This document shows, piece by piece, positions 1,023 through 23,929 of a stretch of 64,000 bases of DNA; position 1 is the first letter of the stretch, and each line of letters starts with the position of its first letter. Where the stretch lies: contig CAYXGG010000008.1 of the NCBI GenBank assembly GCA_964464475.1, forward strand, positions 27,294 to 91,293, in the 5' to 3' direction. The notes below the pieces were generated by a model that saw only the letters and a list, made by a program, of their open reading frames with translations, had not been told where the DNA came from and searched no databases. A program made the translations under genes and the position numbers. The stretch comes from an uncultured Planctomycetales bacterium (GTDB lineage Bacteria > Omnitrophota > Gorgyraeia > Zapsychrales > JAHFFX01).

Positions 1023-2681
1023 ATGAAAATAAGTTTCTTTGGATCAAGAAAGAATCAGCATTCTGCCGTTGACGAAGACCTTCGCCGGATTGGCATCGGT
1101 GATTGGGTGGCGTTGTATTACAATCTCTCGTTTGAATATTTGTTTCAGCATGAAACCGATCCCGCGCTGCAAGGTTATGAGCGGGGTGTCGTGACGGAAT
1201 TTGGCGCGGTGGCCGTAGACACGGGTAAATTCACCGGTCGTTCCCCCAAAGATAAATATATTGTGGAAGAAGTTAGCTCTCAGGATCACGTATGGTGGAC
1301 TAATAACCGGCCGGACGGGTCGGATAATAAACCCATTAGTCAGGCGACTTGGGACCATCTTAAGGCCATTTCCGTAAAACAACTGACGGGCAAAAAGCTT
1401 TATGTGATAGATGGCTTTTGCGGCACAAATCCTGCTACTCGCATTTCAGTACGTTTGGTCACTGAAGTCGCGTGGATGGCGCATTTTTTTAAAAACATGT
1501 TTATCCGTCCGGAAGGGGAAGAACTAAAAAATTTCCGTCCGGATTGGACGATCCTTAACGCTTGTAAGACCTCTTGCCCGGATTATGCGAAATATGGATT
1601 GCGTTCCGAAGTTTATGTGGCTTTTCATTTGGCGGAGCGCATGACCTGCATTGGCGGCACTTGGTACGGGGGAGAAATCAAAAAGGGTATTTTTTCGATC
1701 ATGAATTATTTTCTACCCTTAAAAGGAATTGGATCCTTTCATTGTTCAGCCAATAAAGGGGCTAAAGGCGATGTCGCGTTATTCTTTGGTTTGTCCGGAA
1801 CCGGTAAGACGTCATTATCCACCGATCCGAAGCGTCAGCTGATCGGAGATGATGAACACGGTTGGGACGCGGAGGGGGTTTTTAATTTTGAAGGGGGTTG
1901 CTACGCCAAGTGTATCAACCTTTCTAGAGAGAAAGAGCCCGGTATCTATGATGCCATTAAGGTCAACGCATTGCTGGAAAATGTGGTGGTTGATGATATT
2001 GGCAAAGTTGATTTTTCATCAGGGAAAAAGACTGAGAACACGCGGGTTTCATATCCGATTTTCCATATCGACAACATTGTCAAACCCGTTTCAAAAGGTG
2101 GCCATGCCCAAAACATTATTTTTCTTACCTGTGACGCTTTTGGTGTGTTGCCTCCTGTTGCTAAATTAACCCGCGAACAGGCGATGTATCATTTTTTAAG
2201 CGGGTATACCGCCAAAGTGGCTGGGACAGAATTGGGCGTTACGGAGCCCAAGGCTACTTTTTCTGCCTGTTTTGGGAAAGCTTTCTTGATGGTGCATCCT
2301 ACCAAATACGCGGAAATCCTTGGCCAGAAAATGGATGAGCATGGCGCCCAAGTGTATTTGATTAACACCGGGTGGGTGGGAGGCTCTTACGGTGTGGGGA
2401 AACGCATTCCGATTAAAGATAATCGAGTTTGTATTGATGCGATTCTGGATGGTTCGCTAGATCGCGGCGAGTTTGAGATTATGCCGGTATTCAATTTGCG
2501 TATTCCCAAATACGTTTTGGGCGCGCAAAGCGCTTTAAATCCTCGAGATTCTTGGGCGGACAAAGCGGCTTATGACGCGACGTTGCGTAAATTGGCGGCG
2601 ATGTTTGTGGACAATTTTCAGATATTCACCGATACTCCGAAGGGGAAAGCACTTCTTACGGCTGGTCCACAACTCACGTAG
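1023..2681 (+). CDS. pckA: phosphoenolpyruvate carboxykinase (ATP)
   Basis: Strong resemblance to ATP-type PEPCK (…[31 protein letters not shown]…, kinase-1a [13 protein letters not shown]). ATG at 1023 preceded by GGAGGG; the ORF track starts at an upstream GTG (987). Confidence 0.9.
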
Positions 2682-2707
2682 AGGATAACCTTGTATTCAG
2701 ATGCTTC

Positions 2708-2756
2708 CGCCCCCGGGTCAGTTCTGGTTCGGGGGCGTTTGTTTTTCTGTTTTGGA
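2708..2756 (+). terminator. rho-independent terminator downstream of pckA
   Basis: CGCCCCCG…(14-nt loop)…CGGGGGCG stem followed by TTTGTTTTTCTGTTTT. Confidence 0.6.
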
Positions 2757-2778
2757 AGTTTTCCGGAAATTTTTTTTG

Positions 2779-2787
2779 TGCTACAAT
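2779..2787 (+). promoter_or_regulatory. extended -10 element (TGnTACAAT) upstream of the dsbA-like operon
   Basis: tgtgcTACAAT about 40 nt upstream of the 2828 start; a GGGGAG SD follows. Confidence 0.3.
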
Positions 2788-2827
2788 ACGTTCCACATCA
2801 TCAACATAGAGACGGGGAGATACCATA

Positions 2828-3463
2828 ATGGCCAACGCATCAAAAAAGAATTTCACCATCTGTTTTGTTGTTTTCTGTGTGGTTCTTATTGTCGCCATCA
2901 ATTATTTTAAACAGCAGCTGGCCCCCAAGGTTCTGGTCAGCAATCAAGAGCGTTCTAAGGGTTCGGCGGCAGCTCCCGTAAAAATTACGGAATACATGGA
3001 TTTTCAGTGTCCTGCGTGCGCGCGGGGCGCCATTATGATCCGTCAATTTATGGCCGCTTATCCAGATAAGTTATTCGTAGAAATGAAACATTTTCCTTTG
3101 GAACAAATTCATCCTCACGCCGTACGCAGTTCCCGTTATGCTGAGTGCTCCGCTCGCCAGGGAAAATTCTGGCCCATGCATGATGTTTTAGTGGATAAGC
3201 AAAATGATTGGAAAGGGATGGTCAATGCCGATGTCTACTTCCAGCAGGTCGCCAAAGATATTAAACTGGATTTCTGGAAATTAGAATCCTGTTTGACCGA
3301 TGACAGTATAAAAAATTTTATTATGGCGGAGAAAACCGAAGGAGAAGCCCGTGGGGTCCAGTCCACGCCCACGTATTTCATTAACAATGAGATGGTGGTG
3401 GGAACGAAGTCTTTGGAAGAGAAGTTAACCAAATTGATTGGAGCCTTGCCATCCAAACCTTAA
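2828..3463 (+). CDS. DsbA-family thioredoxin-fold oxidoreductase, N-terminal membrane anchor
   Basis: CPAC active-site motif in a thioredoxin-like context (…EYMDFQCPACARG…); N-terminal hydrophobic segment FTICFVVFCVVLIVAI. Confidence 0.8.
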   Translation: MANASKKNFTICFVVFCVVLIVAINYFKQQLAPKVLVSNQERSKGSAAAPVKITEYMDFQCPACARGAIMIRQFMAAYPDKLFVEMKHFPLEQIHPHAVRSSRYAECSARQGKFWPMHDVLVDKQNDWKGMVNADVYFQQVAKDIKLDFWKLESCLTDDSIKNFIMAEKTEGEARGVQSTPTYFINNEMVVGTKSLEEKLTKLIGALPSKP

Positions 3464-3474
3464 TCGTCTTTCGT

Positions 3475-3903
3475 TTGTTAATTGGGTTGCTTTTTGTGGT
3501 CTCAGGGGGAGAGAAGGTCCTGAGTCCGTATCAAAACTTTTTGTATGTTGTCCAGAATTATGAAATGCTGCCAACTCTGGGGGAAGAACTGGTGGCGCGC
3601 CTATTCCCTTGGATCGAATTATTTTTAGGCCTTTTTCTATTGTTGGGTTTATGGCTTCCTTGGGCCTTACGCGGAACCGCGCTCATGCTCCTAACCTTTT
3701 TGGTCGTGGTGGGCCAAGCGATGTTAAGGCAATTACCTATCGGAGAATGCGGGTGTTTTGGTAAGTTGATTTCTTTACCGCTGCATGTGGTTTTTATTAA
3801 CGACAGTGTTATGTTGATCTTGATCGGGCTGATGTTGTGGCGGCCGCAGGCTGTGGCGAAATGTAGTCTCGATCATTATTTTTCCAGAACAGTAAAATCG
3901 TGA
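3475..3903 (+). CDS. DoxX-family integral membrane protein
   Basis: About 140 aa with four predicted TM helices typical of the DoxX/DoxD family; TTG/GTG start uncertain; 11-nt gap to the upstream gene. Confidence 0.65.
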   Translation: MLIGLLFVVSGGEKVLSPYQNFLYVVQNYEMLPTLGEELVARLFPWIELFLGLFLLLGLWLPWALRGTALMLLTFLVVVGQAMLRQLPIGECGCFGKLISLPLHVVFINDSVMLILIGLMLWRPQAVAKCSLDHYFSRTVKS

Positions 3904-5384
3904 TGAGATTTCTGGTTGGGGCTGGGTTATTTATTATGGGATTAACTTCTTTCGCTTTTGGTCAAACGCCCATCAAAGAGCCCAACGTTGCCGGCCAGTT
4001 CTATCCGGATAACGCGAAAGAATTAGCCTCCGAGATTGAGACCCATTTTGCGCTTTCCTCTCAGAAAGAATTGCAATCACCCGTAGAAGTCATGATCGCT
4101 CCTCACGCCGGTTACTTTTTCTCAGGCGGGGTCGCGGCGTATAGTTTTAAAGCGATTGCCCACAAGGCCTACAAGACGATCGTTGTTATTGCCCCGAGTC
4201 ATTTTTTTCCTTTTGAAGGAATCTCCGTTTGGCCGCAGGGTGGGTTTAAAACGCCGTTAGGGATCGTGTCGGTGGATGAAGAATTCGCCAGCCAACTATT
4301 AAAAGCCAGCCCGAAGTTTCAAAACATCCCAAAAGTTTTTGACCGGGAGCACGCCTTAGAAGTCGAACTGCCTTTTTTGCAACAGACTTTTAAGGATTTC
4401 AAAATTGTTCCGATTTTGATGGGTCAACCCAATGTTGAGGTCTGCCAGAATTTGGCGCGAGCGCTCGATCAGATTATCGGAAAGCGCGATGATGTTTTGA
4501 TTGTGGTCTCTACCGATTTGTCGCACTATCACCCCGATGAGGTGGCTCGCCAGATGGATCAGCGTACTTTAGAGGCGATCGCAGCCCTTAAATCCGATGA
4601 TTTTTGGCAGGAAAATTTAACCGGAACTATGGAAATGTGCGGGTTTACGGGTGTCATGACCGCGTTGCTGTACGCGCAATTAAGGCATTTAAAACCGGAA
4701 GTGCTTAAATATGCCAATTCTTCGGAGGCGTCGGGAGATAAGAATCGGGTTGTTGGTTACAGCGCCGTTGCTTTTTCTCGCGATGCAACGTCTGGCGCGG
4801 TTGACAAAGATTCGGATCTTGACGCGGCCTTAGCCAGCCATCAGAAAAAACGTTTATTGCAGATTGCTCGGGAGACTGTGCAGACTTTTGTGACGACGGG
4901 CAAAGTTCCGAATGTGACGGAAGATGACGCGCGTCTAAAAACCAGGGAAGGCGCTTTTGTGACTTTGCGTAAACATGGCGAACTACGGGGTTGCATTGGA
5001 CACATTATCGGTCGACAGCCGTTGTATCAAACGGTCCGCGATATGGCCGTCGCCGCGGCTTCACAGGATTCGCGTTTTGATTCGGTATCGGTGGCGGAAT
5101 TATCAGACCTAGAAGTGGAAGTTTCCGTCTTGTCCGTACCTCAGGTCATCACCAATCCGAATGAAATCGAGCTAGGTAAACATGGGGTGATTGTCAGTCA
5201 GGGGCCTTTTCGCTCCGGCCTATTTTTGCCGCAGGTCGCGACCGAAACCGGTTGGGATAAAGAAACATTTCTTTCCGTTCTTTGTACTCAGAAAGCGGGG
5301 CTACCCGCGCAAGCCTGGAAAGATCCCAAGACCCGCTTGGAGATTTTTACAGCCGATGTGTTTTCTGAGAAAGACGTTCCCTAG
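3903..5384 (+). CDS. fusion of MEMO1-like (AmmeMemoRadiSam system protein B) and AMMECR1 domains, with predicted N-terminal signal peptide
   Basis: Memo signatures AGQFYP, IAPHAGYFFSG, STDLSHYHP; C-terminal AMMECR1 signature ELRGCIGH; N-terminal MMRFLVGAGLFIMGLTSFAFG-QT looks like a Sec signal; start codon overlaps the DoxX stop (TGATG). Confidence 0.85.
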   Translation: MRFLVGAGLFIMGLTSFAFGQTPIKEPNVAGQFYPDNAKELASEIETHFALSSQKELQSPVEVMIAPHAGYFFSGGVAAYSFKAIAHKAYKTIVVIAPSHFFPFEGISVWPQGGFKTPLGIVSVDEEFASQLLKASPKFQNIPKVFDREHALEVELPFLQQTFKDFKIVPILMGQPNVEVCQNLARALDQIIGKRDDVLIVVSTDLSHYHPDEVARQMDQRTLEAIAALKSDDFWQENLTGTMEMCGFTGVMTALLYAQLRHLKPEVLKYANSSEASGDKNRVVGYSAVAFSRDATSGAVDKDSDLDAALASHQKKRLLQIARETVQTFVTTGKVPNVTEDDARLKTREGAFVTLRKHGELRGCIGHIIGRQPLYQTVRDMAVAAASQDSRFDSVSVAELSDLEVEVSVLSVPQVITNPNEIELGKHGVIVSQGPFRSGLFLPQVATETGWDKETFLSVLCTQKAGLPAQAWKDPKTRLEIFTADVFSEKDVP

Positions 5385-5392
5385 CGACGCCT

Positions 5393-5872
5393 ATGAGTGA
5401 ATCCGCCCGCCCGGTATCCCGCATACACAAACTTCGCAACTTCGGTATTTCTCTTTTTGTCATTCTTTGGACGCTTTACTTTCACTATCACTCCGTTCGG
5501 CATTTTTATCTTGAGCCATGGTTGCAGCGGTCTTTGCCGGCGCCAAAATGGCTGTTCCCGCCGGCCGGCTGGATTATGTTTTATAACGTGAATTATTCGT
5601 ATGGATTCGCTGAAGTTTACGGGATAAAAGAGAAACGTTTGGAGAAAATTGATCCGCATTTAATCCTTAGAACGAGAGCGGTCGGCTATGACAATATTAA
5701 ACGCAATGTGTTGACCATGGTGTTGACGCCAAGTCTCAAGGAGCCGTTTTGCGGTTTTCTGAAAAAACGCCTTCCGCATTATGAAGGCTATTGGGTCACA
5801 TACGTGCAGTATTCCGATTTAAAGAATCATCCCCAGCAGGCGTATCGGCAGCTGGTTTACGAGTGTCGCTAA
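5393..5872 (+). CDS. hypothetical single-pass membrane protein
   Basis: ATG 8 nt after the previous stop; one N-terminal TM helix; no recognisable domain; stop overlaps the next start (TAATG). Confidence 0.5.
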   Translation: MSESARPVSRIHKLRNFGISLFVILWTLYFHYHSVRHFYLEPWLQRSLPAPKWLFPPAGWIMFYNVNYSYGFAEVYGIKEKRLEKIDPHLILRTRAVGYDNIKRNVLTMVLTPSLKEPFCGFLKKRLPHYEGYWVTYVQYSDLKNHPQQAYRQLVYECR

Positions 5873-7167
5873 TGAAGAAACTGTGGAATCGATTATTTTT
5901 GGAGGAACGCCCGTCGCTAGGGTTGGCATTTTTTCGCATCGCCGCCGCGCTGACTGTCGGGTTGCACGTGATTCCATCCTTCTTTCATCTGGGCGATAAT
6001 TATTTTGCCGGAGCCCTGAAGGAGATAAACCCTAATTTTTTTCCGGTGGGGGCGATACGCTGGGTTCAGTCTAGTCCCGATATCGTGGTGGGAGGGATGG
6101 TCGTCGTTTTTCTGGTTGCTTGGTTTTGTTTTTTGATTGGTTTTCTGACCCAAGCCAGTTGTATCGTGCTGCAATTGGCCAGCTATTATTTCTACGCGTT
6201 AAATTCTTTTCATATCGGGACGCTGTCCTGGGACATTCTGCTGGTGACCATGTTTTTGTTGTGTTTAACTCCTTACCCGGGGGATTATTTCTCGATTGAT
6301 GCGTTGCGTGGTGCTGACCCTAATGCTTATCGCCGGATGCGGCCGATTTTTATTCAGCGGCTGTTGCAAATGCAAATCGCGTCCACTTTTTTTTATACCG
6401 CGCTTTATAAAGTGACCGCGCAGGGTAATTGGTTGACCGGAAACCCGATCCACGCGCTGATGAATTATCCTCCTGAGGGGGTGACGAAATGGTTTCTTTT
6501 GAAGGAATACTTAGCCGTACATCCGGATCTTTGCTACGGGATTGGATTATTGATTGTCGTGATTGAACTGTTGATGCCGGTATTGCTGTTTTGGCCGAGG
6601 ACAAGACAGAGCGCGATAATACTTGGTTTTTTGTTCCATGTCGGTTTGGTTTGGACACTGGATGTGCCGACCATTTTCTTTTTTTTGTTCCCGGCCCAGT
6701 TGCTGCTTTTTATTAATTCTAAAGATATCGTCAATTGGATTGAAATCCAACGTCAAGAGAATGCCCGCTTACGTCTCTGGCATTTGTTGTATGACGGCCA
6801 GTGCCATTTTTGCCGCAATAGCGTGCGCCTGTTAAAAACGATGGATATGTTCAACGTCGCGGAGTTGATTAATCTTCACGATGTACCTGATTTCTCTGCA
6901 GATTTTCCCGGGTTGACTCGCGAGGCCGCCTTAAGTCAGATGCATCTGGTTGATGGGCAAGGGAGGGTATTTGCCGGCTTCGCGGCGTTACGCAGACTGT
7001 CTTGGCGGATCCCCATGCTAACGATGCTGATGCCGTTGTTATATTTCCCTGGTACGGGAATTGTCGGGCCCTGGGTGTATGGTTGGGTTGCAAAAAACCG
7101 ATATGTGTTTCACGCTAATTCTGTTTGCGAAAACAACGCTTGTTTCCGTCGTTCCATAAAAAAGTAA
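5872..7167 (+). CDS. HTTM (vitamin-K-dependent gamma-carboxylase-like) multi-pass membrane domain fused to a C-terminal DCC/DUF393 thiol-disulfide oxidoreductase domain
   Basis: N-terminal HTTM signature (…SLGLAFFRIAAALTVG… plus multiple TM helices); C-terminal DUF393 signature LLYDGQCHFCRNSVRLL…AKNRYVF; ATG at 5872 (MKKLWNRLF) in TAATG overlap. Confidence 0.85.
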   Translation: MKKLWNRLFLEERPSLGLAFFRIAAALTVGLHVIPSFFHLGDNYFAGALKEINPNFFPVGAIRWVQSSPDIVVGGMVVVFLVAWFCFLIGFLTQASCIVLQLASYYFYALNSFHIGTLSWDILLVTMFLLCLTPYPGDYFSIDALRGADPNAYRRMRPIFIQRLLQMQIASTFFYTALYKVTAQGNWLTGNPIHALMNYPPEGVTKWFLLKEYLAVHPDLCYGIGLLIVVIELLMPVLLFWPRTRQSAIILGFLFHVGLVWTLDVPTIFFFLFPAQLLLFINSKDIVNWIEIQRQENARLRLWHLLYDGQCHFCRNSVRLLKTMDMFNVAELINLHDVPDFSADFPGLTREAALSQMHLVDGQGRVFAGFAALRRLSWRIPMLTMLMPLLYFPGTGIVGPWVYGWVAKNRYVFHANSVCENNACFRRSIKK

Positions 7168-7230
7168 AGATTCGTTTTGGTTCATCCCCACTTCGTAGTA
7201 CGATACATTGAATTTAAACTTAAGGAATTT

Positions 7231-8574
7231 ATGCGGAAAAAAATAATATTTCTTTTTGTATTTTTGAACACGCTAGCTTTGCTTTCAATGGGTGGCGCTA
7301 AGGCGTATGTTTCGGATAATTTGATTGCTTCTAACAACGGCCAAAGCAAAGAGTTAACTCAAAAAGTGGCGCTGATGTATGAAGAAGCCAATCAGTATTT
7401 TATGGCCAATCAGCAAGAAGAGGCGCTGCGACTTTTTAAGAAAATAGAAAAACTCCTTCCCGATTATAAATCCACGCGAAATTACATAACTTTCTTAACG
7501 GCAAAGAAAACGGAGAACGTTCGTCTGGCCGAGGCGCGAGCGATTGTGTCTCCCCCCAAGGAGCGCGTTAGTGTCGCGCAGGCAGAAAATTTGGCCGAGT
7601 CTGTTCGTCGAGAAAAACAACAATCCTTGAGCGCTCTGCCATCGGCTGACGTAGAGGTAACGTCTCCAGAGCCAGCTCCGGTGACGACGATGTTTCCTTC
7701 AAATTCGTCCGCTGACGCTGGTCACCCAAATTCAGATTCGGCCATGAACGCTACCTATGTCCAGGCAAGTTCGCGAAAAAATGAATTGGTTCAGGAAAGC
7801 GCTGAATTGCAAAAGGATTTTTACCGAGGCATCGCTAATCTGTATGAGCGCGGAGAAAAATATTTCAATGAAGGAAGATTAGGGCAGGCGCGACTCATTT
7901 TTGATCAGATTAATGAACTGGCTCCCGGTTTTAAACAAACGAATTCTTATTTGGAAAAGCTGGCTAACGCAAGTTGGGATGATGATTTAGATTTGCCGGC
8001 GGCCGTATCTTGGACCGATACTGTCGGCGCTCAGCCATCCGGAAAGAAAGTTTCGCGTTTTGATTTGGAGAGTCTTTATGCTTATGCTGTTCATTTGTAT
8101 CAAAGTGAACGATTGGTGGATGCTAAGCAGAAATTTATCGAGGTCGCTGAGATTGATAAGGATTATAAGTTGACCCAACGCTATTTAGGATTGTTAGGTG
8201 CTCGCTCTCCTGATAGTGTGCCGGAGGTAACTGAAATGCCAGAAACACCTGCGGATCTTTCGGGAGATCCGCGCGCCCAAAAGCGGGCTCTGAAGGCTCG
8301 ACAACGTGAGGAAAAATTGGCGCAACAGCAGAAGATGCGCGATGAGAAGAAAGCGCGTAAGGAAGCTCTGAAGGCGTTAAATCAGGAAGAGATGAAGAAA
8401 GAGTTGGATGATCTGTATGTCGAGGCGATCCAGCTTTTTGGAGAGCGAAAATTTGATGAGTCAGAAAAACGATTTAATCAAGTGCTCTTAATCAAGCCGG
8501 GATACAAGAATTGTCATCATTATTTGAAAATGATTGTGGGAGAAAGGGCGTTGACGCGTCCCTCTCAGGACTAA
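7231..8574 (+). CDS. secreted repeat protein (TPR-like; four copies of an approximately 34-aa motif ending P-x-YK-x-T-x-x-YL)
   Basis: Signal peptide MRKKIIFLFVFLNTLALLSMGGAKA; internal repeats …LPDYKSTRNYITFL / …APGFKQTNSYLEKL / …DKDYKLTQRYLGLL / …KPGYKNCHHYLKMI; Lys/Arg/Glu-rich coiled segment. Confidence 0.6.
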   Translation: MRKKIIFLFVFLNTLALLSMGGAKAYVSDNLIASNNGQSKELTQKVALMYEEANQYFMANQQEEALRLFKKIEKLLPDYKSTRNYITFLTAKKTENVRLAEARAIVSPPKERVSVAQAENLAESVRREKQQSLSALPSADVEVTSPEPAPVTTMFPSNSSADAGHPNSDSAMNATYVQASSRKNELVQESAELQKDFYRGIANLYERGEKYFNEGRLGQARLIFDQINELAPGFKQTNSYLEKLANASWDDDLDLPAAVSWTDTVGAQPSGKKVSRFDLESLYAYAVHLYQSERLVDAKQKFIEVAEIDKDYKLTQRYLGLLGARSPDSVPEVTEMPETPADLSGDPRAQKRALKARQREEKLAQQQKMRDEKKARKEALKALNQEEMKKELDDLYVEAIQLFGERKFDESEKRFNQVLLIKPGYKNCHHYLKMIVGERALTRPSQD

Positions 8575-8586
8575 GGGAGGATTAAG

Positions 8587-8925
8587 ATGAAAAAGATACT
8601 GCTTGCCATTTTTTTGTTGTTGCTGTTGGGTTCGCCGCTGGCCATAGCTCAGCCGCCATCTGATATTGAACTGAGTTTCAATCAGGAGTCAAAAGTTCTT
8701 TCGATAAAAGTCCTGCATGTTTCGCAACGTAACCGAGATCATTATATTCGTCGGATTTGGGTGTATTTGAACGATCAAGAAGTCGTTAAGGACGGTTTTG
8801 CCGCTCAGGAACCTTGGGGAATCGCACACGATGTCAAAGTGGAAGCGAAGTCAGGTGATGTGATTCGCGTGGTGGCCAAGTGTTCCAAAGCCGGCGAGAC
8901 GACACAGACTTTGCAAATTCCGTAA
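8587..8925 (+). CDS. small secreted protein with degenerate superoxide-reductase (desulfoferrodoxin Fe-binding)-like domain
   Basis: Signal peptide; [19 protein letters not shown] resembles the SOR HPM…EEHYIEWIEL block and a Cys sits at the SOR-equivalent position, but the N-terminal His and the C-x2-H His ligand are absent. Confidence 0.45.
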
Positions 8926-9011
8926 GGGTTTGTAAATTTCTTTTTTTGAATTTTTTGTTTTTGGCATTATTAATCTTTTTTCCCTCGTCGCTTGACGCTC
9001 ATCAAGATTTT

Positions 9012-11135
9012 ATGACCCAGCCAGCCTTGAATCGCCTTTCGCAAGAAAAAAGTCCTTATCTTTTGCAGCACGCGGAGAACCCCGTTGATTGGTATCCTTG
9101 GGGACCGGAAGCTTTCGCCAAAGCTAAAAAAGAAAATAAACCGATACTGTTATCTATCGGTTATTCCACGTGTCATTGGTGCCATGTCATGGCGCATGAG
9201 TCGTTTGAGAATCCTGACATCGCGCGTTTGATGAATGAATATTTTGTTGCGATTAAAGTGGATCGCGAAGAACGACCGGACATTGATCAGGTTTATATGA
9301 CCGCGGTGACCGCTTTAAGCGGGCAAGGAGGCTGGCCGCTCACCGCTTTCTTAACACCCGACCAGAAGCCGTTTTACGGCGGAACCTATTTTCCTCCTGA
9401 ACCGAAATGGGGATCTCCGGGATTTCGTCAAGTTTTGGAATCTATTCATTCCGCCTGGGTCAATCAGCCCGAACAGGTTTCTAAATCCAGCGCGTCACTC
9501 CTTAAGTTTTTGCAAGAACAAGCCAAGCCAACTCCTGCCGCTGAACCGCTCGGGCGGGATGTCCTGACTGCCGCGTATTCAACCTTCGTCGCTAATTTTG
9601 ACGAACGTTATGGCGGATTCGGGTCGCACCCTAAGTTTCCTTCGGCGCATAATCTATCCTTTTTATTGCGTTTTAGTCAGGGATCAGCGAAATCTGAAGC
9701 GCAAGCTATGGCCGAACTAACGTTACAGGCTATGGCGAAAGGCGGTCTCTATGACCACTTAGGCGGCGGGTTTCATCGATATTCAACGGATGAAAGATGG
9801 CATGTTCCACATTTTGAGAAAATGTTATATGACCAAGCCACGCTGGTCATCGCGTATTTGGAAGCGTATCAGTTGACTGGCTTGCCAGCGTATGCTCGGG
9901 TGGCTCGAGAGGTGCTGGATTATGTCGCGCGGGATTTGCGATCGCCGGAAGGGGGCTTTTTTAGCGCGGAAGATGCGGATAGTTTGCCGGTAGAAAATGG
10001 ACACGAGAAGAAAGAGGGCGCTTTTTACATTTGGAGCGCCAAAGAGCTAGATGCTTTGCTGGGCAAAGACGCGATCGTTAATAAATATTATTTTGGCGTT
10101 GAACAAGAAGGGAACGCACTTTCAGATCCGCATGGAGAATTTATTGGTCAAAATATTCTTTTTGTCGCGCGAACCGTCGAGCAAACGGCACAATTTCTAA
10201 ATTTGGAGGTGGCGGAAGTTGAGGCGGCGCTGACTCGTTCGAAGCAACTTCTTTTCTTGCATCGCCAGCGACGTCCCCGGCCGCACCTGGATGATAAAGT
10301 ATTGACGGATTGGAATGGGTTGATGATTTCCGCGTTTGCGTTGGGCGGTCGGGTGCTGGACGAGTCTAAGTATACGGACATTGCTGAGGCGGCGGCGAAG
10401 TTTGTTTTGAGCAAATTGTTGAAGCCGGATGGGGAACTGTTGCATCGCTACCGCGATCAGGAAGCGGCGATTAGAGGCACATTGACGGATTATGCTTTTT
10501 TGACGCAGGGTTTGCTGGATTTGTATCCGGCCACCCTGAATGTGACCTACTTAACTCAGGCGATCGCCTTAACCCACCGTCAGGTGACTTTATTCTGGGA
10601 CGCTGCGGCGGGAGGTTTTTTTATGACAGCGCAGAACGCCGAGCCATTGATTATTCGGCAGAAAGAAGTGTACGACGGGGCTCTGCCATCGGGTAACTCG
10701 GTGGCCGCGCTTAATTTGTTACGGTTGTATGCGCTCACGCTGAATTCTTTTTGGCGTGATAAAGCTGATGCGACTCTTGAAGCTTTCGCGGCTCCTGTTC
10801 GGCAACATCCCGCTGGTTATGGTCAAATGTTGATGGCTTTGGATTATAAATTGGGACCATCTCGGGAAATTGTGCTTTCCGCGAAAGACATGAATCCGGA
10901 AGTAAGAACATGGTGGCATTTTTTAATGACGGGATTCTTTCCGCGTACGGAATTTCTTTTTTATGATCTTTCGGCTCAAGGATCCGCTTCGTTAGTTTCG
11001 CTAGCGCCTTTTGTTAAGGATCAACCTCCCTTAGAAGGGCGTCCCACGGTTTACGTCTGTGAAAACCACGTTTGTCAATTACCGGTTCAGGGTTTAGAGA
11101 AGTTACGTCAGGTATTGATGAGCCCTCAACCGTAA
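9012..11135 (+). CDS. DUF255 thioredoxin-domain protein (YyaL/SPATA20-like; thioredoxin domain plus N-acylglucosamine-2-epimerase-like alpha/alpha barrel)
   Basis: Signature …[22 protein letters not shown]…; first ATG at 9012 (MTQPALNRL). The ORF extends upstream to 8880 and encodes a signal-peptide-like stretch, so the true start is uncertain. Confidence 0.8.
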
Positions 11136-11257
11136 AGAGAGCCAAAGCCTTCCCGAAAGTTAAATTTGTGCTTTTGGGGGATTTCAGTTATTATTGAACC
11201 GGAAATTTCAAATCAACTTTTTAAAGCTGACTCCATTGATAAGGAATCAAATAGGAT

Positions 11258-12106
11258 ATGGAAAAACTCCTCGGTGGTATTCTCATCGCTGTCATTGTTC
11301 TCGGTTTTGGCACGGCTTTCTTGAATGACCCTGAATTTGCTAAACAATTTTCATTGCGGAACATTTTGACGTCAATCGGAATTTTTCGGGCTGATTCGGA
11401 TCGTCAGGAACTAGTCAGTAGATCTCGAACCGATGTCACCCAGTTTATGGAGCGCTACAAAGATATCGTGGCCCAGCAGCAAACCATGATGGAAACCCTC
11501 AAGGATCGTAATGATCAAATATTAGAAGATTTACAAAGTCGCCTGGAGCAGAGCCGCCAGCAGCAAGCCCAGACTTCTGACGCGACACAAAACCTCGCCC
11601 GCCGCTGGGAAGATACCGTTGCTCACACTAAAGCCATGAATGATCAGTTGCTACAAAATATGAAAGACCAAATGGTTTCTAATATGTTGGCACGCGAGGG
11701 GCGGGTTGATCCGCAGGAATTAATGCAGCGACAGAATCAAGTCCTGGCGGATACTCAGCAACGGATGAGTCAGTTAATGGATAATATGCGCGATAAAATG
11801 GAACAGGTGGAAGAGACCCGCCAGTTGATCAAAAATTCGGAAGCCATGTGGCAACGTCAACGAGAAGTAATTCAGGAAATCAACAACCGCAACGAGCAGT
11901 TAATGCAGGACATTCAGTATAAAATGGCTGAGCAGCGTCAGCGCAATGAGGACGCTATGGCCGCAGTGCGTGAGAAACAAGAGCAGACCACTCAGCGAAA
12001 TCAGGACCAGATGGAGCGCCTTCAGCGGGACCGAGAGCGGTCCGAAGACATGCAGCGCCGGCTTCGTGACCAGATTGAGGCCCAGCGGGCACGCGCTGGC
12101 TATTAG
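11258..12106 (+). CDS. membrane-anchored Gln/Arg-rich coiled-coil protein
   Basis: N-terminal TM helix, then a long heptad-like Q/R/E/M-rich region; no catalytic motifs. Confidence 0.5.
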   Translation: MEKLLGGILIAVIVLGFGTAFLNDPEFAKQFSLRNILTSIGIFRADSDRQELVSRSRTDVTQFMERYKDIVAQQQTMMETLKDRNDQILEDLQSRLEQSRQQQAQTSDATQNLARRWEDTVAHTKAMNDQLLQNMKDQMVSNMLAREGRVDPQELMQRQNQVLADTQQRMSQLMDNMRDKMEQVEETRQLIKNSEAMWQRQREVIQEINNRNEQLMQDIQYKMAEQRQRNEDAMAAVREKQEQTTQRNQDQMERLQRDRERSEDMQRRLRDQIEAQRARAGY

Positions 12107-12233
12107 GTTTTACCCACCCCGACGATTATTCCTGCTTGCGGTCAACGTAGCTTGACCAAACAACCCTTGAATTCTCATTGAAAAAAGTTATCATAAACGC
12201 GTTAACTTTATAATTCCATAAAGGAGCGGTCTT

Positions 12234-14126
12234 ATGAAAGCGTTAAAGATCATTTTTCTGGTGGTGATAGTCATCATTGTTTTGGGAGGAGTAGGTGCAT
12301 GGCTTTTTGTTAAGAATTTTGATTTGAACAAGTATAAGCCGCAGATTGTAGAGCAGGCGAGCAAGGCCTTCGGACGTCCTGTCCAGATCGGCGATTTAAA
12401 GTTAAATCTATCCGCCGCGCAAGGTGTTGCTTTAGGGGTCAGTGGGTTTAGCGTTGAAGACTTACCTGCCTTTCAGCAAGGCAAATTGCTGCAAGTGGAA
12501 TCAGTACAGGTCGGCGTGGATGTACAGCATTGGCTACAGACCAAAGAGGTTCGCGTCACAAAAATTCTGATTCATAAACCGGTGTTGAATTTAGTAAAGA
12601 ATGAACAGGGGCAATTAAACCTCGAGTCGTTGGGGAAATCTGAAAAGGCACCTGCGGGGGATGTCAGTGGTGTTTCGGCTCCATCTACCACTAGTCCTAG
12701 CGCCGCATCAGTATCTCAGCCTATTCCTAAATTTGTGGTCAATCAGATTGCCATTACTGAGGGAAGCATTGCCATCTTAGATCGCAGTCCTGGGGGCGTC
12801 AGCTTGCAGGTCCAGCCGTATCAATTAACCGTCAACAATTTTACCCTGGGTCAGCCGTTTCAGGTGGATCTGAAGGCCGCGGTCCTGAGTGGTTCTCCCA
12901 ATATTCAGGTTACCGGGTGGGTCACACTTGACGAGGCTAAACAGGCCGCGACACTTAAAGACATTCATTTTTCAACTGATCTCGCGTTATTTAAACTATC
13001 GGAAGTCGAGAAGTTGTTATTGAGTTTCGGGACTGGAGCCTCACTCCCTAAAGAATGGGCCGGGCAACTCTCGGTTTCTATTCCTGGGGCGGTGGTGGGC
13101 GCTAAGGGGCTCGAAGGCTTTAGCGCAAACGGTACATTGACCAATGGTAAAGTGGCCTTAAAGGAGTTGGCTGTTCCGATTGAAAATGTGGCGGCGGAGT
13201 TTTCTGCGACGACCGAAACAGTTGATTTAAAAAATCTTACTCTCTCGATAGCAGGTGGCCAGGTCAAATCGCAAGCCATTGTTAGGGATTTTCTAACTGA
13301 TCCTAAATTTGATTTAGAGAAAAAGATTACGGATGTTTCCATCGGTGATCTGATTGATCAGTCCGCTCAGCCAGCTAAATTTTCCGGGAAATTATCTGGT
13401 CAGTTTAAAGGAACCGGTCAGGGGAAAACGCCAGATGCCTTGCAGACTTCTTTGGTCGGTAACGGCGCTTGGAGTGTGGCCGAAGGGAAATTGATGAATT
13501 TGAATGTGCTAAAAACCGTATTGAGTAAGATTTCGATGATTCCTGGTTTAGTGGAAAAAGTGGAGCAAAATTTACCGGAAAAATATAAGGAAGTTTTGAA
13601 TCGACAAGACACGTTGTTGTCTAAAATTGAAGTTGAGTCGAGCGTTCAGTCCGGTAGGATTAATCTTAGTAAAGCGCAGATTATGGGCGAAGGCTTCGCT
13701 TTGGCGGCTGAAGGGAGTGTTGGCTTTGACCAAACGGTGGCGTTAAATGCGGCGATGTTTATTCCCGAGGATTTAGCCGCCGCTATGATCGCGGCCGTTC
13801 CGGAGTTGGACTACGTTAAGGAAGAATCGGGGCGTATCCGTATCCCGGTTGAGATTAGTGGGAAAGCAAATGCTTTAGTGATTGCTCCGGATTTGGATTA
13901 TTTAGGTAAGCGATTGATTGTCAACAAGGGACGGGAAGAATTAAATAAGGTGCTGAATAAAGTTTTGGGTGGGGAGGAAGAATCCGCCCCCCAAGGATCA
14001 GTCCCTGGGGACGCACGCCCGGCGGGGGCTGAGGGTAATGCTCCCACGGATGCTTCTGCTCCAGCGGATGACCAGCCTCTGGAAAAGAAATTATTAAATA
14101 ACGTGTTAGATTCCATATTTAAATAA
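12234..14126 (+). CDS. AsmA-family outer-membrane assembly protein
   Basis: N-terminal TM anchor followed by a long beta-rich periplasmic region typical of AsmA/TamB-like proteins; SD AAAGGAG. Confidence 0.65.
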   Translation: MKALKIIFLVVIVIIVLGGVGAWLFVKNFDLNKYKPQIVEQASKAFGRPVQIGDLKLNLSAAQGVALGVSGFSVEDLPAFQQGKLLQVESVQVGVDVQHWLQTKEVRVTKILIHKPVLNLVKNEQGQLNLESLGKSEKAPAGDVSGVSAPSTTSPSAASVSQPIPKFVVNQIAITEGSIAILDRSPGGVSLQVQPYQLTVNNFTLGQPFQVDLKAAVLSGSPNIQVTGWVTLDEAKQAATLKDIHFSTDLALFKLSEVEKLLLSFGTGASLPKEWAGQLSVSIPGAVVGAKGLEGFSANGTLTNGKVALKELAVPIENVAAEFSATTETVDLKNLTLSIAGGQVKSQAIVRDFLTDPKFDLEKKITDVSIGDLIDQSAQPAKFSGKLSGQFKGTGQGKTPDALQTSLVGNGAWSVAEGKLMNLNVLKTVLSKISMIPGLVEKVEQNLPEKYKEVLNRQDTLLSKIEVESSVQSGRINLSKAQIMGEGFALAAEGSVGFDQTVALNAAMFIPEDLAAAMIAAVPELDYVKEESGRIRIPVEISGKANALVIAPDLDYLGKRLIVNKGREELNKVLNKVLGGEEESAPQGSVPGDARPAGAEGNAPTDASAPADDQPLEKKLLNNVLDSIFK

Positions 14127-22533: not shown

Positions 22534-22782
22534 ATGAATAAAAATTACCTTTATGGTTTTTTGACGGCAACGGTATTATTTTTGTCTTTAGGGAATATGT
22601 TTTTATATAAAGCGGAAGCGCAGTCGCGGGGATTTGGCGGGGTGGTTCCTTTTGTTACGCCGAGTGGATGGGTGGGGCTTTTTAATCAGAATGACGGAAT
22701 GATGTATTTTTATGATGACCGCTTGCAGAATTGCATCAAGACGGTAAAAGTGAACACTTTGGGTGGGGCTTTACAGGAATAA
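22534..22782 (+). CDS. small secreted hypothetical protein
   Basis: AAGGAGG SD 7 nt upstream of ATG 22534; signal-peptide-like N-terminus; lies directly upstream of moxR. Confidence 0.4.
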   Translation: MNKNYLYGFLTATVLFLSLGNMFLYKAEAQSRGFGGVVPFVTPSGWVGLFNQNDGMMYFYDDRLQNCIKTVKVNTLGGALQE

Positions 22783-22793
22783 AGGGAGGGCTT

Positions 22794-23786
22794 ATGGAAG
22801 TTAACGTGGCGGCTTTAAATGAAAAGATCAAGCAGGAAAGTAGTTTTGTGCACGCTCTTTATTCGGAAACAGAAAAAGTGATTGTGGGGCAGCGTTATTT
22901 ACTGGAGCGACTGCTGGTGGGACTTTTGGCCAATGGGCACGTTTTGATTGAGGGGGTTCCGGGGTTGGCTAAAACTACCGCAGTTAAGACGCTTTCTAGC
23001 GCGATCCAGACGCGTTTTCAGCGCGTTCAGTTTACGCCGGACATGTTACCGGCGGATTTGACAGGGACGCTGATTTATGATCAAAAGGCCGGTGATTTTA
23101 AAATTAAAAAAGGACCGATTTTTGCCAATCTAATCCTGGCGGATGAAATCAACCGTGCTCCCGCCAAAGTCCAAAGCGCGCTCTTGGAAGCTATGCAGGA
23201 AAGGCAAGTGACCATCGGTGAAGAAACACTGAAACTTGATGATCCTTTTTTGGTTTTGGCCACTCAGAATCCCATTGAACAGGAAGGGACTTATCCGCTT
23301 CCCGAAGCCCAGGTTGATCGGTTTATGCTGAAAGTCAAGATCACGTATCCGACTAAGGAAGAGGAATTAAAAATTCTTAAACGCATGTCGTTCACGGAGC
23401 AAAAACTGGCCCCGCAGAAAATTATTTCTCCTAAAGACATTCTTAATGCTCGGCATCTCGTTGATGAAATTTACATGGACGAGAAGATTGAACGATATAT
23501 TGTTGATTTGGTCGAAGCGACGCGGCATCCGGCAGATTATCGCTTGGCTGAGCTTAAAGGGTTGATTCAGTATGGCGCTTCTCCTCGGGCGACCATTTTC
23601 TTGGCTTTGGCCGCCAAAGCTTACGCTTTCTTGCAAGGGCGTGGCTACGTAACGCCCCAGGATGTTAAATCCATCGGATTAGACGTTCTGCGTCACCGCG
23701 TGATCGTCAGTTATGAAGCGGAAGCTGAAGAAAAGAATTCGGAAGATATTATTAAAAGAATTTTTGACGAAATTGCCGTTCCGTAA
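22794..23786 (+). CDS. moxR: MoxR-family AAA+ ATPase
   Basis: Walker A GVPGLAKT, Walker B LILADEINRA, MoxR-type C-terminus; AGGGAGGG SD before ATG 22794. Confidence 0.9.
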   Translation: MEVNVAALNEKIKQESSFVHALYSETEKVIVGQRYLLERLLVGLLANGHVLIEGVPGLAKTTAVKTLSSAIQTRFQRVQFTPDMLPADLTGTLIYDQKAGDFKIKKGPIFANLILADEINRAPAKVQSALLEAMQERQVTIGEETLKLDDPFLVLATQNPIEQEGTYPLPEAQVDRFMLKVKITYPTKEEELKILKRMSFTEQKLAPQKIISPKDILNARHLVDEIYMDEKIERYIVDLVEATRHPADYRLAELKGLIQYGASPRATIFLALAAKAYAFLQGRGYVTPQDVKSIGLDVLRHRVIVSYEAEAEEKNSEDIIKRIFDEIAVP

Positions 23787-23929
23787 CTTTCGGGTTTAGA
23801 GAAAAGGGTATAGGGTAAAGTTGGGAAGTCCTAAGCCTTTCTTGATTCTGAGGTTTTGAAGGATGAAGAACTGTTTGTCGAAGACCCTAATCCCTATTTA
23901 GCAGACCCGCCCATTGTTTTCATACCGCT

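Follow-up and report, generated by a model that had tools for sequence, protein, structure and literature searches.

A predicted exported Memo-AMMECR1 fusion within a conserved thiol-redox gene cassette of an Omnitrophota subclade

Introduction

The 64-kb stretch of DNA analysed here (the window) encodes a protein in which a Memo and an AMMECR1 module are fused behind a predicted Sec signal peptide. The distinctive trait of the Omnitrophota subclade to which it belongs is a translationally coupled cassette that encodes, in this order, a DsbA-like thioredoxin, a MauE/DoxX-family membrane protein, the fusion, a small membrane protein and an HTTM protein fused to a DCC1-like domain. On balance, we favour the reading that the fusion is a periplasmic metal/thiol redox enzyme, which would be tied to a membrane thiol-quinone relay by an operon specific to this subclade.

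Memo and AMMECR1 are ancient, near-universal modules with links to human disease, MEMO1 being associated with cell migration and cancer and AMMECR1 with an X-linked syndrome, yet to our knowledge no biochemical function has been established for either. AMMECR1 ranks among the top-priority uncharacterised families in a survey of archaeal “dark matter” published in 2019 (PMC6393860). Where both modules are fused, apparently exported and tied to thiol/quinone redox proteins, as in this clade, the chemistry is narrowed to reactions that are compatible with the periplasm; the system of the window clade would also be simpler to reconstitute and may need no Fe-S/SAM enzyme. We take TIGR04335, TIGR04336 and TIGR04337 to represent protein A, protein B and the radical-SAM enzyme, respectively, of the AmmeMemoRadiSam system. 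This system was reportedly defined by comparative genomics, and the contexts of Memo and AMMECR1 are said to have been treated in 2019 by Burroughs et al. in J Biol Chem 294:10211. Passages of two further articles refer to this discussion of AmmeMemoRadiSam contexts (PMC7159879; PMC7694686).

Architecture of the fusion

The open reading frame runs on the forward strand from a GTG at 3900 or an ATG at 3903 to the stop at 5384, corresponding to 494 or 493 aa, respectively, and comprises the following parts:

3900..3962, forward strand: Sec/SPase-I signal peptide, residues 1-21 (MMRFLVGAGLFIMGLTSFAFG), with cleavage predicted before Q22 from the sequence, homologue features and pLDDT
3978..4766, forward strand: Memo (LigB-like) domain, supported by Pfam, TIGR04336, invariant columns and Foldseek
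4767..4856, forward strand: low-complexity inter-domain linker, with pLDDT down to 56-77 around residues 295-312
4857..5363, forward strand: AMMECR1 domain with an invariant C365 (LRGCIG) and a near-invariant C462 (LC..KAGL), supported by Pfam, TIGR04335, alignment and Foldseek

In the database, the gene is called from the ATG at 3903 (P0001; 493 aa, 100% identity), and its NCBI contig is 98,222 bp long. The original prediction likewise gave 3903 as the start, while the peptide it quoted (MMRFLV...) begins at the GTG at 3900, a trivial mismatch. Its statement that the Memo and AMMECR1 modules lie in one reading frame is confirmed by the profile matches: in the 493-aa form, residues 26-288 match Pfam Memo (PF01875, E 5e-65) and residues 319-487 match Pfam AMMECR1 (PF01871, E 9e-55), while the NCBIfam models reach 287.5 bits for system protein B (TIGR04336, cut-off 26), with profile positions 1-270 of 270 covered, and 173.1 bits for protein A (TIGR04335, cut-off 99). 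The fusion is thus a member of both AmmeMemoRadiSam families, with both modules far above the cut-offs and all signature residues present; what sets it apart from the system as defined is the fusion of the modules in B-A order and the Sec signal peptide.

Among 149 diverse sequences, the Memo-domain residues H69, H101, D206 and H209 do not vary and C247 is conserved to at least 90%, and 120 close sequences keep all five without exception; we take these residues to be equivalent to the metal site of MEMO1. The AlphaFold2 model of the fusion (pLDDT 94 overall) resembles human MEMO1 (3bcz; 7kq8, iron-bound; 7l5c, copper-bound) with a Foldseek TM of 0.82-0.83 at 22-23% identity, and the His/His/Asp/His/Cys residues, presumably the metal ligands, are kept. 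Unlike the window protein, human MEMO1 is cytosolic, eukaryotic and single-domain, and has neither an AMMECR1 fusion nor an export signal. The AMMECR1 module carries the sequence ELRGCIGH, and the cysteines of LRGCIG and C..KAGL are kept in its alignment with archaeal PH0010 (1vaj) and MM0484 (1zq7). Foldseek relates it to these two proteins and to ST0229 (1wsc) with TM values of 0.63-0.79 at 34-38% identity, with both cysteines kept, although the archaeal proteins are stand-alone and cytoplasmic. Since the cytoplasmic archaeal AMMECR1 proteins share the invariant AMMECR1 cysteines, and the Memo cysteine is conserved across its whole family, these three residues would be catalytic or ligand residues rather than parts of structural disulfides, and would as such need redox control in the periplasm. 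A conserved structural disulfide was considered as the reason for a DsbA partner and found to be unsupported, as C182 and C239 are variable and residue 239 of the window protein is Asn.

Predicted export of the fusion

In the numbering of the 494-aa form, the N-terminus consists of an n-region (MMR), an h-region (FLVGAGLFIMGLTSF) and a c-region (A19-F-G21) followed by Q22, with the AGQFYP motif at residues 31-36. An N-terminal extension of at least 17 aa is present in 93 of the 118 closest homologues that have the core motif. With cleavage judged by rule and conservation, a small -3/-1 site lies 0-5 residues ahead of the conserved IKEPNV core in all 93; the n-region is net-positive in 89 of them, the uncharged core has a median length of 13 residues, and the sequence of the segment is poorly conserved. 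AlphaFold2 assigns a pLDDT of 50-58 to residues 1-20. A lipobox (L-[AS]-[GA]-C) was found neither in the window protein, which has no Cys in residues 1-30, nor in any of the 93 subclade homologues, whereas lipobox-type signals are present in many relatives from other phyla. The twin-arginine motif of Tat signals is also absent from the window protein, residues 1-21 of which contain one Arg, and the loose pattern RR.[FLIVM][LIVMF] is matched by three of the 93 subclade extensions. The Sec-type signal peptide of the original prediction therefore holds up, its n-, h- and c-region features being conserved across the clade, and the fusion reads as a textbook Sec substrate with predicted cleavage by signal peptidase I.

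It is very improbable that the hydrophobic segment is instead an uncleaved membrane anchor, or that translation starts at M13, either of which would leave the catalytic domains in the cytoplasm. An internal ATG does encode M13, in about 25 of the 118 homologues the database gene call begins at a downstream start of this kind, and radical-SAM partners in sister clades have similar N-termini, which fits poorly with Fe-S and SAM chemistry in an extracytoplasmic location. Yet the positive n-region, the core of typical length and the small -3/-1 site stay conserved while the sequence drifts, and in other phyla the segment is replaced by lipoprotein-type signals with a Cys after the h-region, where canonical twin-arginine signals on the radical-SAM partners make sense only for export. 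The overlap of the fusion start with the upstream stop codon and the periplasm-facing thiol oxidoreductases encoded by neighbouring genes likewise speak for the exported form.

The operon and its conservation

The fusion gene is surrounded by the following features:

2708..2737, forward strand: terminator-like hairpin with a 13-bp stem, 9 G-C pairs and a T-rich tail, 27 nt past the PEPCK stop
2801..2829, forward strand: sigma-70-like promoter match (TCAACA, 17 nt, CATAAT) directly upstream of the DsbA-like gene, a consensus match only, such matches being no more numerous in the region than expected from shuffling
2828..3463, forward strand: DsbA-like thioredoxin, 211 aa, with an N-terminal membrane anchor and CPAC (Pfam Thioredoxin_4 2e-23, DSBA 4.7e-14)
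3475..3903, forward strand: MauE/DoxX-family membrane protein, 142 aa, with a CGC motif (Pfam MauE 7.1e-22, DoxX 1.6e-6)
5393..5872, forward strand: small membrane protein, 159 aa, a conserved cassette member with no Pfam match
5872..7167, forward strand: HTTM fused to a DCC1-like thiol-disulfide oxidoreductase with CHFC (Pfam HTTM 9.9e-14, DCC1-like 7.9e-20)
7177..8574, forward strand: TPR-containing protein with a signal-like N-terminus (Pfam TPR_2), in a gene order shared with L001 and L169
8587..8925, forward strand: small protein of no known family, 112 aa, with a signal peptide; the homologous position is occupied in L001
8880..11135, forward strand: DUF255/DsbH-type thioredoxin-domain protein with CHWC and a signal-like N-terminus (Pfam Thioredox_DsbH 8.8e-80), at the same position in L001

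The predicted hairpin, which is the strongest terminator-like site within 2500-12300 and follows the PEPCK gene (987-2681), marks the 5′ boundary of the operon. The DsbA-like protein belongs to Thioredoxin_4 (83.8 bits, cut-off 23.2 bits) and combines CPAC with an N-terminal hydrophobic anchor, and the product of 3475-3903 matches MauE (PF07291) with 78.5 bits against a cut-off of 27. The stop codon of the MauE gene overlaps the fusion start (GTGATGA at 3900-3906), an overlap also seen in L001, L003 and L004, and the HTTM+DCC1 gene, with its ATG at 5872, shares 1 nt with the stop codon before it. The TPR gene probably belongs to the same transcription unit as the cassette, and the DUF255/DsbH-type gene probably starts downstream of 8880.

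MauD and MauE serve the maturation of methylamine dehydrogenase, DsbA-DsbB/VKOR pairs are disulfide relays, and the HTTM domain is related to the vitamin-K-dependent gamma-carboxylase. The window resembles the first two systems in pairing a periplasmic thioredoxin-fold CxxC protein with a small polytopic MauE/DoxX protein beside an exported redox enzyme. It differs from MauD/MauE in that MauE membership is a Pfam match only and no mau or other amine-dehydrogenase genes were seen, so that the methylamine-dehydrogenase role of MauE does not carry over.

Conservation of the cassette was assessed in the subclade defined by at least 50% identity to the window fusion, which comprises 41 Omnitrophota loci with about 0.5 Mb of sequence. 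The DsbA-like gene is present in 28 of the 31 loci with at least 1.2 kb upstream and the MauE gene in 29 of 33; downstream, the small membrane protein, detected with an HMM built here, occurs in 25 of the 33 loci with at least 0.6 kb and the HTTM gene in 21 of the 26 with at least 2.2 kb. The cassette is kept while its outer flanks differ, with PEPCK in the window, L001 and L169 and glycoside hydrolases in L003, L004 and L085, and the 1-4-nt stop/start overlap between the MauE and fusion genes is retained despite these changes. Most or all cassette genes are absent from three members with 53% identity (L110, L111 and L112). The DsbA-like/MauE pair was also considered as a general companion of exported fusions, which was rejected, as the HMMs match the window subclade only, the one exception being a DsbA-domain protein of L027 that is unrelated. 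A neighbour-joining tree (no support values) places the subclade as sister to a PVC/Omnitrophota group in which the genes are arranged as radical SAM, fusion and DsbD_2. Since this sister group has DsbD_2 beside the fusion, a membrane thiol-redox partner appears to be a recurring neighbour of exported fusions.

Exported fusions and radical-SAM partners in other bacteria

Three separate cytoplasmic proteins had been taken as the norm for AmmeMemoRadiSam systems, and an exported pair as unusual; neither view is borne out in bacteria. A word-index search with the window protein gives 7,528 matches at E<=1e-10, 3,513 representatives of 50% clusters match it at E<=1e-30, and the best 270 listed matches are all Memo+AMMECR1 fusions. 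Sec or lipoprotein-type N-termini were recognised in at least 90 of 150 diverse representatives and in about 60 of the 80 listed GTDB loci, spanning more than 12 phyla. Judged from their sequences, fused and signal-bearing Memo-AMMECR1 proteins number in the thousands and occur in Omnitrophota, Planctomycetota, Desulfobacterota, Acidobacteriota, Bacteroidota and other phyla.

A TIGR04337 gene lies directly beside the exported fusion in most of these lineages (34 of the 80 listed GTDB loci overall), genuine TIGR04337 genes scoring 325-395 bits; the distance to a signal-bearing fusion is 0-300 nt in about 19 loci and 1-3.3 kb in about 12 others. Such loci with an exported fusion and a radical-SAM gene (type 1) include L009, L011, L012 and L086 (Omnitrophota), L007 (Planctomycetales), L024 and L040 (Acidobacteriota) and many from Bacteroidales. 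They share with the window the B-A fusion, the N-terminal export signal and the invariant residues, and among them the PVC loci have a membrane thiol-redox neighbour as well. They differ in that TIGR04337 remains adjacent, its product frequently bearing a Tat or Sec-like signal of its own, and many have a large Spermine_synth-domain membrane protein or DsbD_2, while none has the DsbA-like/MauE/HTTM set. The radical-SAM protein itself bears a Tat or Sec-like signal in 29 loci, the Tat calls being motifs read by eye, and Pfam TAT_signal gave only weak sub-threshold matches on these partners (L024 and L071). The earlier inference from export to an activity independent of the radical-SAM enzyme thus fails, since radical-SAM genes adjoin signal-bearing fusions and are often signal-bearing themselves. 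A division into signal-bearing fusions without a radical-SAM gene and signal-less fusions with one was likewise rejected by comparison of the loci.

If the Tat and Sec signals on the partners reflect real export, they would challenge the assumed confinement of radical-SAM chemistry to the cytoplasm; a full-text literature search found no phrase describing a periplasmic, exported, extracytoplasmic or secreted radical SAM. The maturases anSME, which acts on sulfatases, and QhpD, which acts on QhpC, are cytoplasmic radical-SAM enzymes of exported proteins. Comparable are 8-9 related loci (e.g. L068, L074 and L076 from Prevotella) that combine a lipoprotein fusion with a signal-less radical-SAM protein, which by analogy would fit modification before export. 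The window differs from the maturase systems in having no radical-SAM gene, and the 29 loci differ from them in the export signal on the radical-SAM protein itself.

Absence of a radical-SAM gene beside the subclade fusions

The claim that the 64-kb window lacks a radical-SAM gene was upheld. The C-x3-C-x2-C motif does not occur in stop-to-stop segments of at least 80 aa in its six frames, and an HMM built from eight verified TIGR04337 proteins found no match in it. A radical-SAM HMM matched none of the 41 subclade loci (about 0.5 Mb), so that neither the window nor these loci encode a TIGR04337 gene together with proteins A and B; the partners are instead the DsbA-like, MauE/DoxX, small membrane and HTTM+DCC1 proteins. 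This absence beside the subclade fusions and the different conserved partner set would favour the idea that the subclade, at least, may work independently of a radical-SAM enzyme.

It is a real possibility, though one we hold to be doubtful, that the fusion is an ordinary member of the three-component system whose radical-SAM partner lies at another place in the genome, perhaps along with a second fusion of type 1, and that the cassette is secondary. Apart from the adjacency of TIGR04337 in the sister clade and the listed GTDB loci, this is supported by the abundance and strong conservation of the radical-SAM protein in Omnitrophota: the best 120 matches are 71-77% identical to the query, and all named ones belong to this phylum. 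The catalytic residues of the fusion are all unchanged, and the close relatives L006, L008 and L017 have no adjacent radical-SAM gene although they keep the type 1 downstream genes, indicating that radical-SAM adjacency is not obligatory. Against this reading stands the lack of radical-SAM matches across the subclade loci. Two comparisons of little power agree: the best 120 radical-SAM matches and 17 long subclade contigs had no contig in common, and the NCBI accessions of four annotated cassette proteins and of 16 radical-SAM proteins plus cluster members formed no common block. Weak evidence of the same kind is that no GTDB genome contributes two fusion loci among the 80 listed. The contigs of P0038 and P0361 (both 5,618 bp) were considered as one shared contig and turned out to be two different ones.

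Proposed function

We know of no biochemical function for any prokaryotic Memo, AMMECR1 or TIGR04337 protein, and the substrate and chemistry proposed here for the fusion are guesses. In the favoured reading the mature fusion would act as a periplasmic, metal- and cysteine-dependent redox catalyst on a substrate located in the envelope, which might be a membrane isoprenoid or quinone-type molecule or the side chain of an exported protein. Through thiol-disulfide exchange linked to the quinones of the membrane, the DsbA-like and MauE proteins would establish or regenerate the redox state of the invariant cysteines. The place of this pair may be taken in sister clades by DsbD_2, a membrane protein, together with a radical-SAM enzyme that is exported or anchored in the membrane, and in the window clade the radical-SAM step would be dispensable or supplied from elsewhere.

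The pair could also be an incidental neighbour, that is, a general disulfide-forming system for which the fusion is at most one of many folding clients in the periplasm. The occurrence of the DsbA-like/MauE pair without a fusion in at least one genome (L167) points in this direction, as do the further thioredoxin-fold proteins (DCC1 and DUF255) in the window operon, which give it the look of a general envelope-redox island. We nevertheless regard this as rather unlikely: the MauE subfamily is small (236 matches) and most of its comparable listed members are size-matched to a fusion-bearing contig, the tightly overlapping DsbA-like/MauE/fusion arrangement survives changes of the outer flanks, and the extra cysteines, not being a conserved pair, offer no obvious structural disulfide to form.

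A bolder extension of the proposed redox role, which we put forward as speculative and probably too far-reaching, is that AmmeMemoRadiSam chemistry is extracytoplasmic in many bacteria, with the fusion exported by Sec or as a lipoprotein and the radical-SAM enzyme by Tat, and that in the window clade the latter was replaced by a quinone/thiol module of the DsbA-like, MauE/DoxX and HTTM+DCC1 proteins, which would supply the redox or radical-initiating step to an otherwise unaltered Memo-AMMECR1 catalyst. Should such a replacement have occurred, the window clade would be a natural experiment on the loss of the radical-SAM component. As a separate observation, some of the radical-SAM partners with a Tat signal contain a CxxCH haem-like insert.

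Fusion Gene and Signal Peptide

The Memo-AMMECR1 gene is read on the forward strand from a GTG at 3900 or an ATG at 3903 to the stop at 5384. The database gene call starts at ATG 3903 and the original prediction took its coordinates from there, yet the peptide it quoted (MMRFLV...) begins at the GTG (window 3900-3905). The proposed fusion of both modules in one ORF is real: Pfam places Memo at residues 26-288 (E 5e-65) and AMMECR1 C-terminal to it at residues 319-487 (E 9e-55), and the NCBIfam models TIGR04336 (AmmeMemoRadiSam system protein B) and TIGR04335 (protein A) score 287.5 bits (cut-off 26) and 173.1 bits (cut-off 99), respectively. The AlphaFold2 model, based on 149 homologues (mean pLDDT 94), has two compact domains with a disordered linker at approximately residues 295-312. 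In Foldseek comparisons human MEMO1 (3bcz, 7kq8, 7l5c; TM 0.82-0.83) is matched by the first domain, whereas the second matches AMMECR1 proteins of archaea (1vaj, 1zq7; TM 0.74-0.79), and a PDB sequence search is concordant for both. H69, H101, D206, H209, and C365 are invariant across 149 diverse homologues, in which C247 and C462 are kept in at least 90%, and among 120 close homologues hardly any of the seven varies, so that the fusion looks catalytically intact, as judged from its signature residues. Stand-alone AMMECR1 genes (L152-L166; ~180-205 aa) share 47-54% identity with the AMMECR1 domain of the window protein, indicating that some unfused forms come almost as near to it as other fusions do.

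Read from GTG 3900, the N-terminus runs MMR / FLVGAGLFIMGLTSF / A19-F-G21 | Q22-TPIKEPNVAGQFYP, with a short positive n-region, a hydrophobic core of 15 residues, and small residues at -3 and -1; inspection revealed neither a lipobox cysteine nor a twin arginine. The signal-peptide call combines this rule with conservation among the 118 closest homologues bearing the core motif. An N-extension of at least 17 residues is present in 93 of them, all 93 with a small -3/-1 site placed 0-5 residues ahead of the strongly conserved IKEPNV(A/S)G.FY core, 89 with a net-positive n-region, and none with a lipobox. Since these features are kept while the extension sequence itself is weakly conserved, they form the signature of a cleaved signal peptide, and the predicted Sec-type signal is thereby borne out. 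The alternative, that the segment is an uncleaved anchor or stems from a mis-called start, is very improbable. The remaining 25 homologues begin within that hydrophobic segment or past it and seem to be gene calls cut short. Residues 1-20 of the model have a pLDDT of 50-58, and the gene begins within the stop codon region of its upstream neighbour (overlap GTGATGA), as it does in related loci.

Distribution of Exported Fusions

An exported Memo/AMMECR1 pair had been considered unusual, a view that the wider family contradicts. With 8,000 candidates scored, the window protein has at least 7,528 matches at E<=1e-10; every one of the top 120 is a fusion of 470-520 aa, from Omnitrophota wherever an organism is named, and JGI names top matches "AmmeMemoRadiSam system protein B/protein A." A comparison with 50%-identity cluster representatives gave 3,513 matches at E<=1e-30, the best 150 of which are all fusions (38-56% identity). 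Judged crudely, at least 90 of those 150 start with K/R followed by a hydrophobic segment, and many have a cysteine positioned as in a lipoprotein signal. In a GTDB scan with one genome per species, Sec- or lipoprotein-type N-termini occur in ~60 of the 80 loci listed, which span Omnitrophota, Planctomycetota, Desulfobacterota, Nitrospirota, Acidobacteriota, Zixibacteria, KSB1, Fibrobacterota, Verrucomicrobiota, Calditrichota, Cloacimonadota, and many Bacteroidales including Prevotella.

Among bacteria, both the fusion and its export are thus ordinary, though undiscussed in the accessible literature, where "AmmeMemoRadiSam" receives passing mentions only. The accessible full texts yielded nothing on exported Memo/AMMECR1 and nothing on periplasmic radical-SAM enzymes. 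One paper refers to the Memo-AMMECR1 systems described by Burroughs et al. (2019), and a 2019 survey places AMMECR1 among the top-priority uncharacterised archaeal families (PMC6393860).

Radical-SAM Partners of Exported Fusions

Export had also been taken to suggest an activity independent of radical SAM. As a general rule this fails, since ORFs beside signal-bearing fusions in GTDB loci are genuine TIGR04337 proteins (325-395 bits; cut-off 220). An HMM built from GTDB TIGR04337 proteins detects the gene in 34 of the 80 loci listed; the distance between it and the fusion is 0-300 nt in ~19 loci and 1-3.3 kb in ~12 Bacteroidales loci. The partners themselves commonly bear signals, although a radical-SAM enzyme outside the cytoplasm would be unexpected. 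Among 120 Omnitrophota radical-SAM matches (P0271-P0390), 114 have an MK...hydrophobic...AQ-type N-terminus resembling a Sec signal or anchor. Canonical twin-arginine motifs (MISRRQLL, ISRREFLRK, LSRRNFLRN, LSRRKFISK, VSRRDMLK, LDRRSFLQ, MDRRTFIK) are found on partners from Acidobacteriota, Bacteroidota, KSB1, Fibrobacterota, and Verrucomicrobiota, Bacteroidales partners carry x-K-R-(D/E)-F-L-K, and Pfam TAT_signal gives weak matches only.

Radical-SAM ORFs with twin-arginine-type N-termini
SRRxFLK motif: L040:8476-9714, L053:8552-9832, L058:4657-5901, L138:167-1405, L032:3207-4580
SRRxFLK motif: L024:8683-9936, L023:1778-3241, L071:4322-5485, L073:8842-9942
KR(D/E)FLK motif (Bacteroidales): L029, L037-L042, L052, L063, L064, L077, L084, L127, L128

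Sorting loci by hand showed that fusion and radical-SAM protein are both signal-bearing in 29 loci and the fusion alone in 8-9, which is why independence does not follow from export.

Signals on fusion and radical-SAM protein
Fusion yes, radical SAM yes: 29 loci
Fusion yes, radical SAM no: 8-9 loci (e.g. Prevotella)
Fusion no, radical SAM no: 14 loci (few lineages)
Fusion no, radical SAM yes: 0 loci

Signal-less fusions occur on metagenome contigs (L130-L144; N-terminus MSDKHPTSDRYPAVAG...), always with a signal-less, convergent radical-SAM gene ~100 nt downstream; this lineage represents the cytoplasmic equivalent of such exported pairs. In the ORFs of L040, L053, L058, and L138 the Tat signal is followed by an insert of ~50 residues with a conserved W-I/A-S...CxxCH (CLKCH, CEDCH, CVECH, CTDCH), which has no Pfam match and whose CxxCH looks like a putative c-type haem attachment site. 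Two single ORFs (L083:8978-11383 and L118:8846-11383; 801 and 845 aa) combine radical SAM, Memo, and AMMECR1; the one in L118 is directly followed by a DsbD_2 gene.

A Thiol-Redox Cassette Without Radical SAM

The predicted lack of a radical-SAM gene in the 64-kb window holds: neither a C-x3-C-x2-C motif in six-frame stop-to-stop segments of at least 80 aa nor a match to an HMM built from eight verified TIGR04337 proteins was found there. Instead, the window belongs to a distinct, well-conserved variant with a thiol/quinone redox cassette in place of the radical-SAM neighbour.

Features around the fusion (all genes on the + strand)
2708-2737, strong terminator-like hairpin upstream of the DsbA-like gene
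2801-2829, promoter-like match upstream of the DsbA-like gene
2828-3463, +, DsbA-like thioredoxin (Pfam; CPAC motif, N-terminal anchor)
3475-3903, +, MauE/DoxX membrane protein (Pfam; CGC motif)
3900 or 3903-5384, +, Memo-AMMECR1 fusion
5393-5872, +, small membrane protein of no known family, conserved cassette member
5872-7167, +, HTTM + DCC1-like thiol-disulfide oxidoreductase (Pfam; CHFC motif), conserved cassette member
7177-8574, +, TPR protein (Pfam)
8587-8925, +, small secreted protein, 112 aa, no known family
8880-11135, +, DUF255/DsbH thioredoxin, 751 aa, signal-like N-terminus (Pfam; CHWC motif)

The first five genes are spaced by 11, -4/-1, 8, and -1 nt, and those at 5393-7167 are translationally coupled. 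The HTTM domain is related to vitamin-K-dependent carboxylase. The DUF255/DsbH gene probably starts later than 8880, because the listed ORF overlaps that of the 112-aa protein by 46 nt. A MoxR-type AAA ATPase and a DUF58/VWA protein at 22731-24841, the start of a Bat/MoxR-like operon, are unrelated to the fusion.

A metagenome scan added ~35 loci of the subclade (Omnitrophota fusions at least 50% identical to the window protein). Custom HMMs on 41 fused loci (~0.5 Mb), counted where enough flank is present, found the DsbA-like gene in 28 of 31, MauE in 29 of 33, the small membrane protein in 25 of 33, and HTTM in 21 of 26; radical SAM was found in 0 of the 41. On long contigs (L001, L003, L004, L085, L168, L169) DsbA-like, MauE, and fusion genes stay together despite different outer flanks. 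A radical-SAM gene elsewhere in the genome is a genuine, if lesser, possibility. Among the top 120 radical-SAM matches none was assignable to a cassette-bearing genome by an indirect contig/accession comparison of low power, and none of the GTDB genomes contributes two fusion loci to the 80 listed, a weak hint that each genome carries one fusion form or the other.

Proposed Role of the Cassette

From sequence and context, the window protein is a predicted exported Memo-AMMECR1 with intact signature residues, set in a conserved, predicted co-transcribed group of periplasm-facing thiol oxidoreductases and quinone-family membrane proteins. Its three invariant cysteines are also kept in cytoplasmic archaeal homologues, suggesting that they are functional rather than structural, and a periplasmic location would leave them open to oxidation. 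In the simplest reading the DsbA-like/MauE pair would exchange electrons with these cysteines, coupled to the quinone pool, and HTTM+DCC1 may act as a second quinone/thiol element. Fitting substrates, given these partners, might be a membrane isoprenoid or quinone, or an exported protein. Memo is said to have been linked, in the 2019 work of Burroughs and co-workers, to nucleotide-base and aliphatic isoprenoid modification.

That the exported fusion is served by such a membrane thiol/quinone relay is, on balance, somewhat probable. The pair could also be a housekeeping Dsb system linked incidentally to the fusion: L167:5363-6842 (GCA_029261055.1) has a same-subfamily pair with no Memo-AMMECR1 gene within 6 kb, making the pair a separable module. 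This is unlikely, as most comparable listed members of the small MauE subfamily (236 matches) match a cassette-bearing contig in size. The DsbA-like and MauE HMMs match nothing in the loci outside the subclade save one unrelated DsbA-domain protein. The L167 pair is followed by genes for an unknown protein of 132 aa and a DnaJ-domain protein of 996 aa.

Relationship to Other Fusion Forms

In a neighbour-joining tree of 67 fusion cores, which lacks support values and is indicative only, the cassette subclade is sister to a PVC/Omnitrophota group (L007, L009, L011, L086) with the order radical SAM, fusion, DsbD_2, then RsmE and MtaB. The sister group thus has DsbD_2 with radical SAM present, whereas the window subclade has DsbA-like and MauE with radical SAM absent, so that in both the exported fusion repeatedly has a membrane thiol-redox protein directly beside it. 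DsbD_2 follows the fusion in L007, L009, L011, L012, and L086. RsmE (16S rRNA methyltransferase) and MtaB (tRNA methylthiotransferase) lie downstream in L008, L009, L011, L017, and L086, and may reflect the "nucleotide base modification" context of the literature or plain synteny. Where an exported fusion is linked to radical SAM, the third neighbour is most often a polytopic membrane protein of 720-840 aa with a Spermine_synth (SAM/dcSAM-binding) domain, which recurs in 24 loci from Acidobacteriota, Bacteroidota, Nitrospirota, and Verrucomicrobiota, e.g. L039:12136-14619, L012:11396-13651 (-), L040:11465-13630, and L024:11478-13811 (-).
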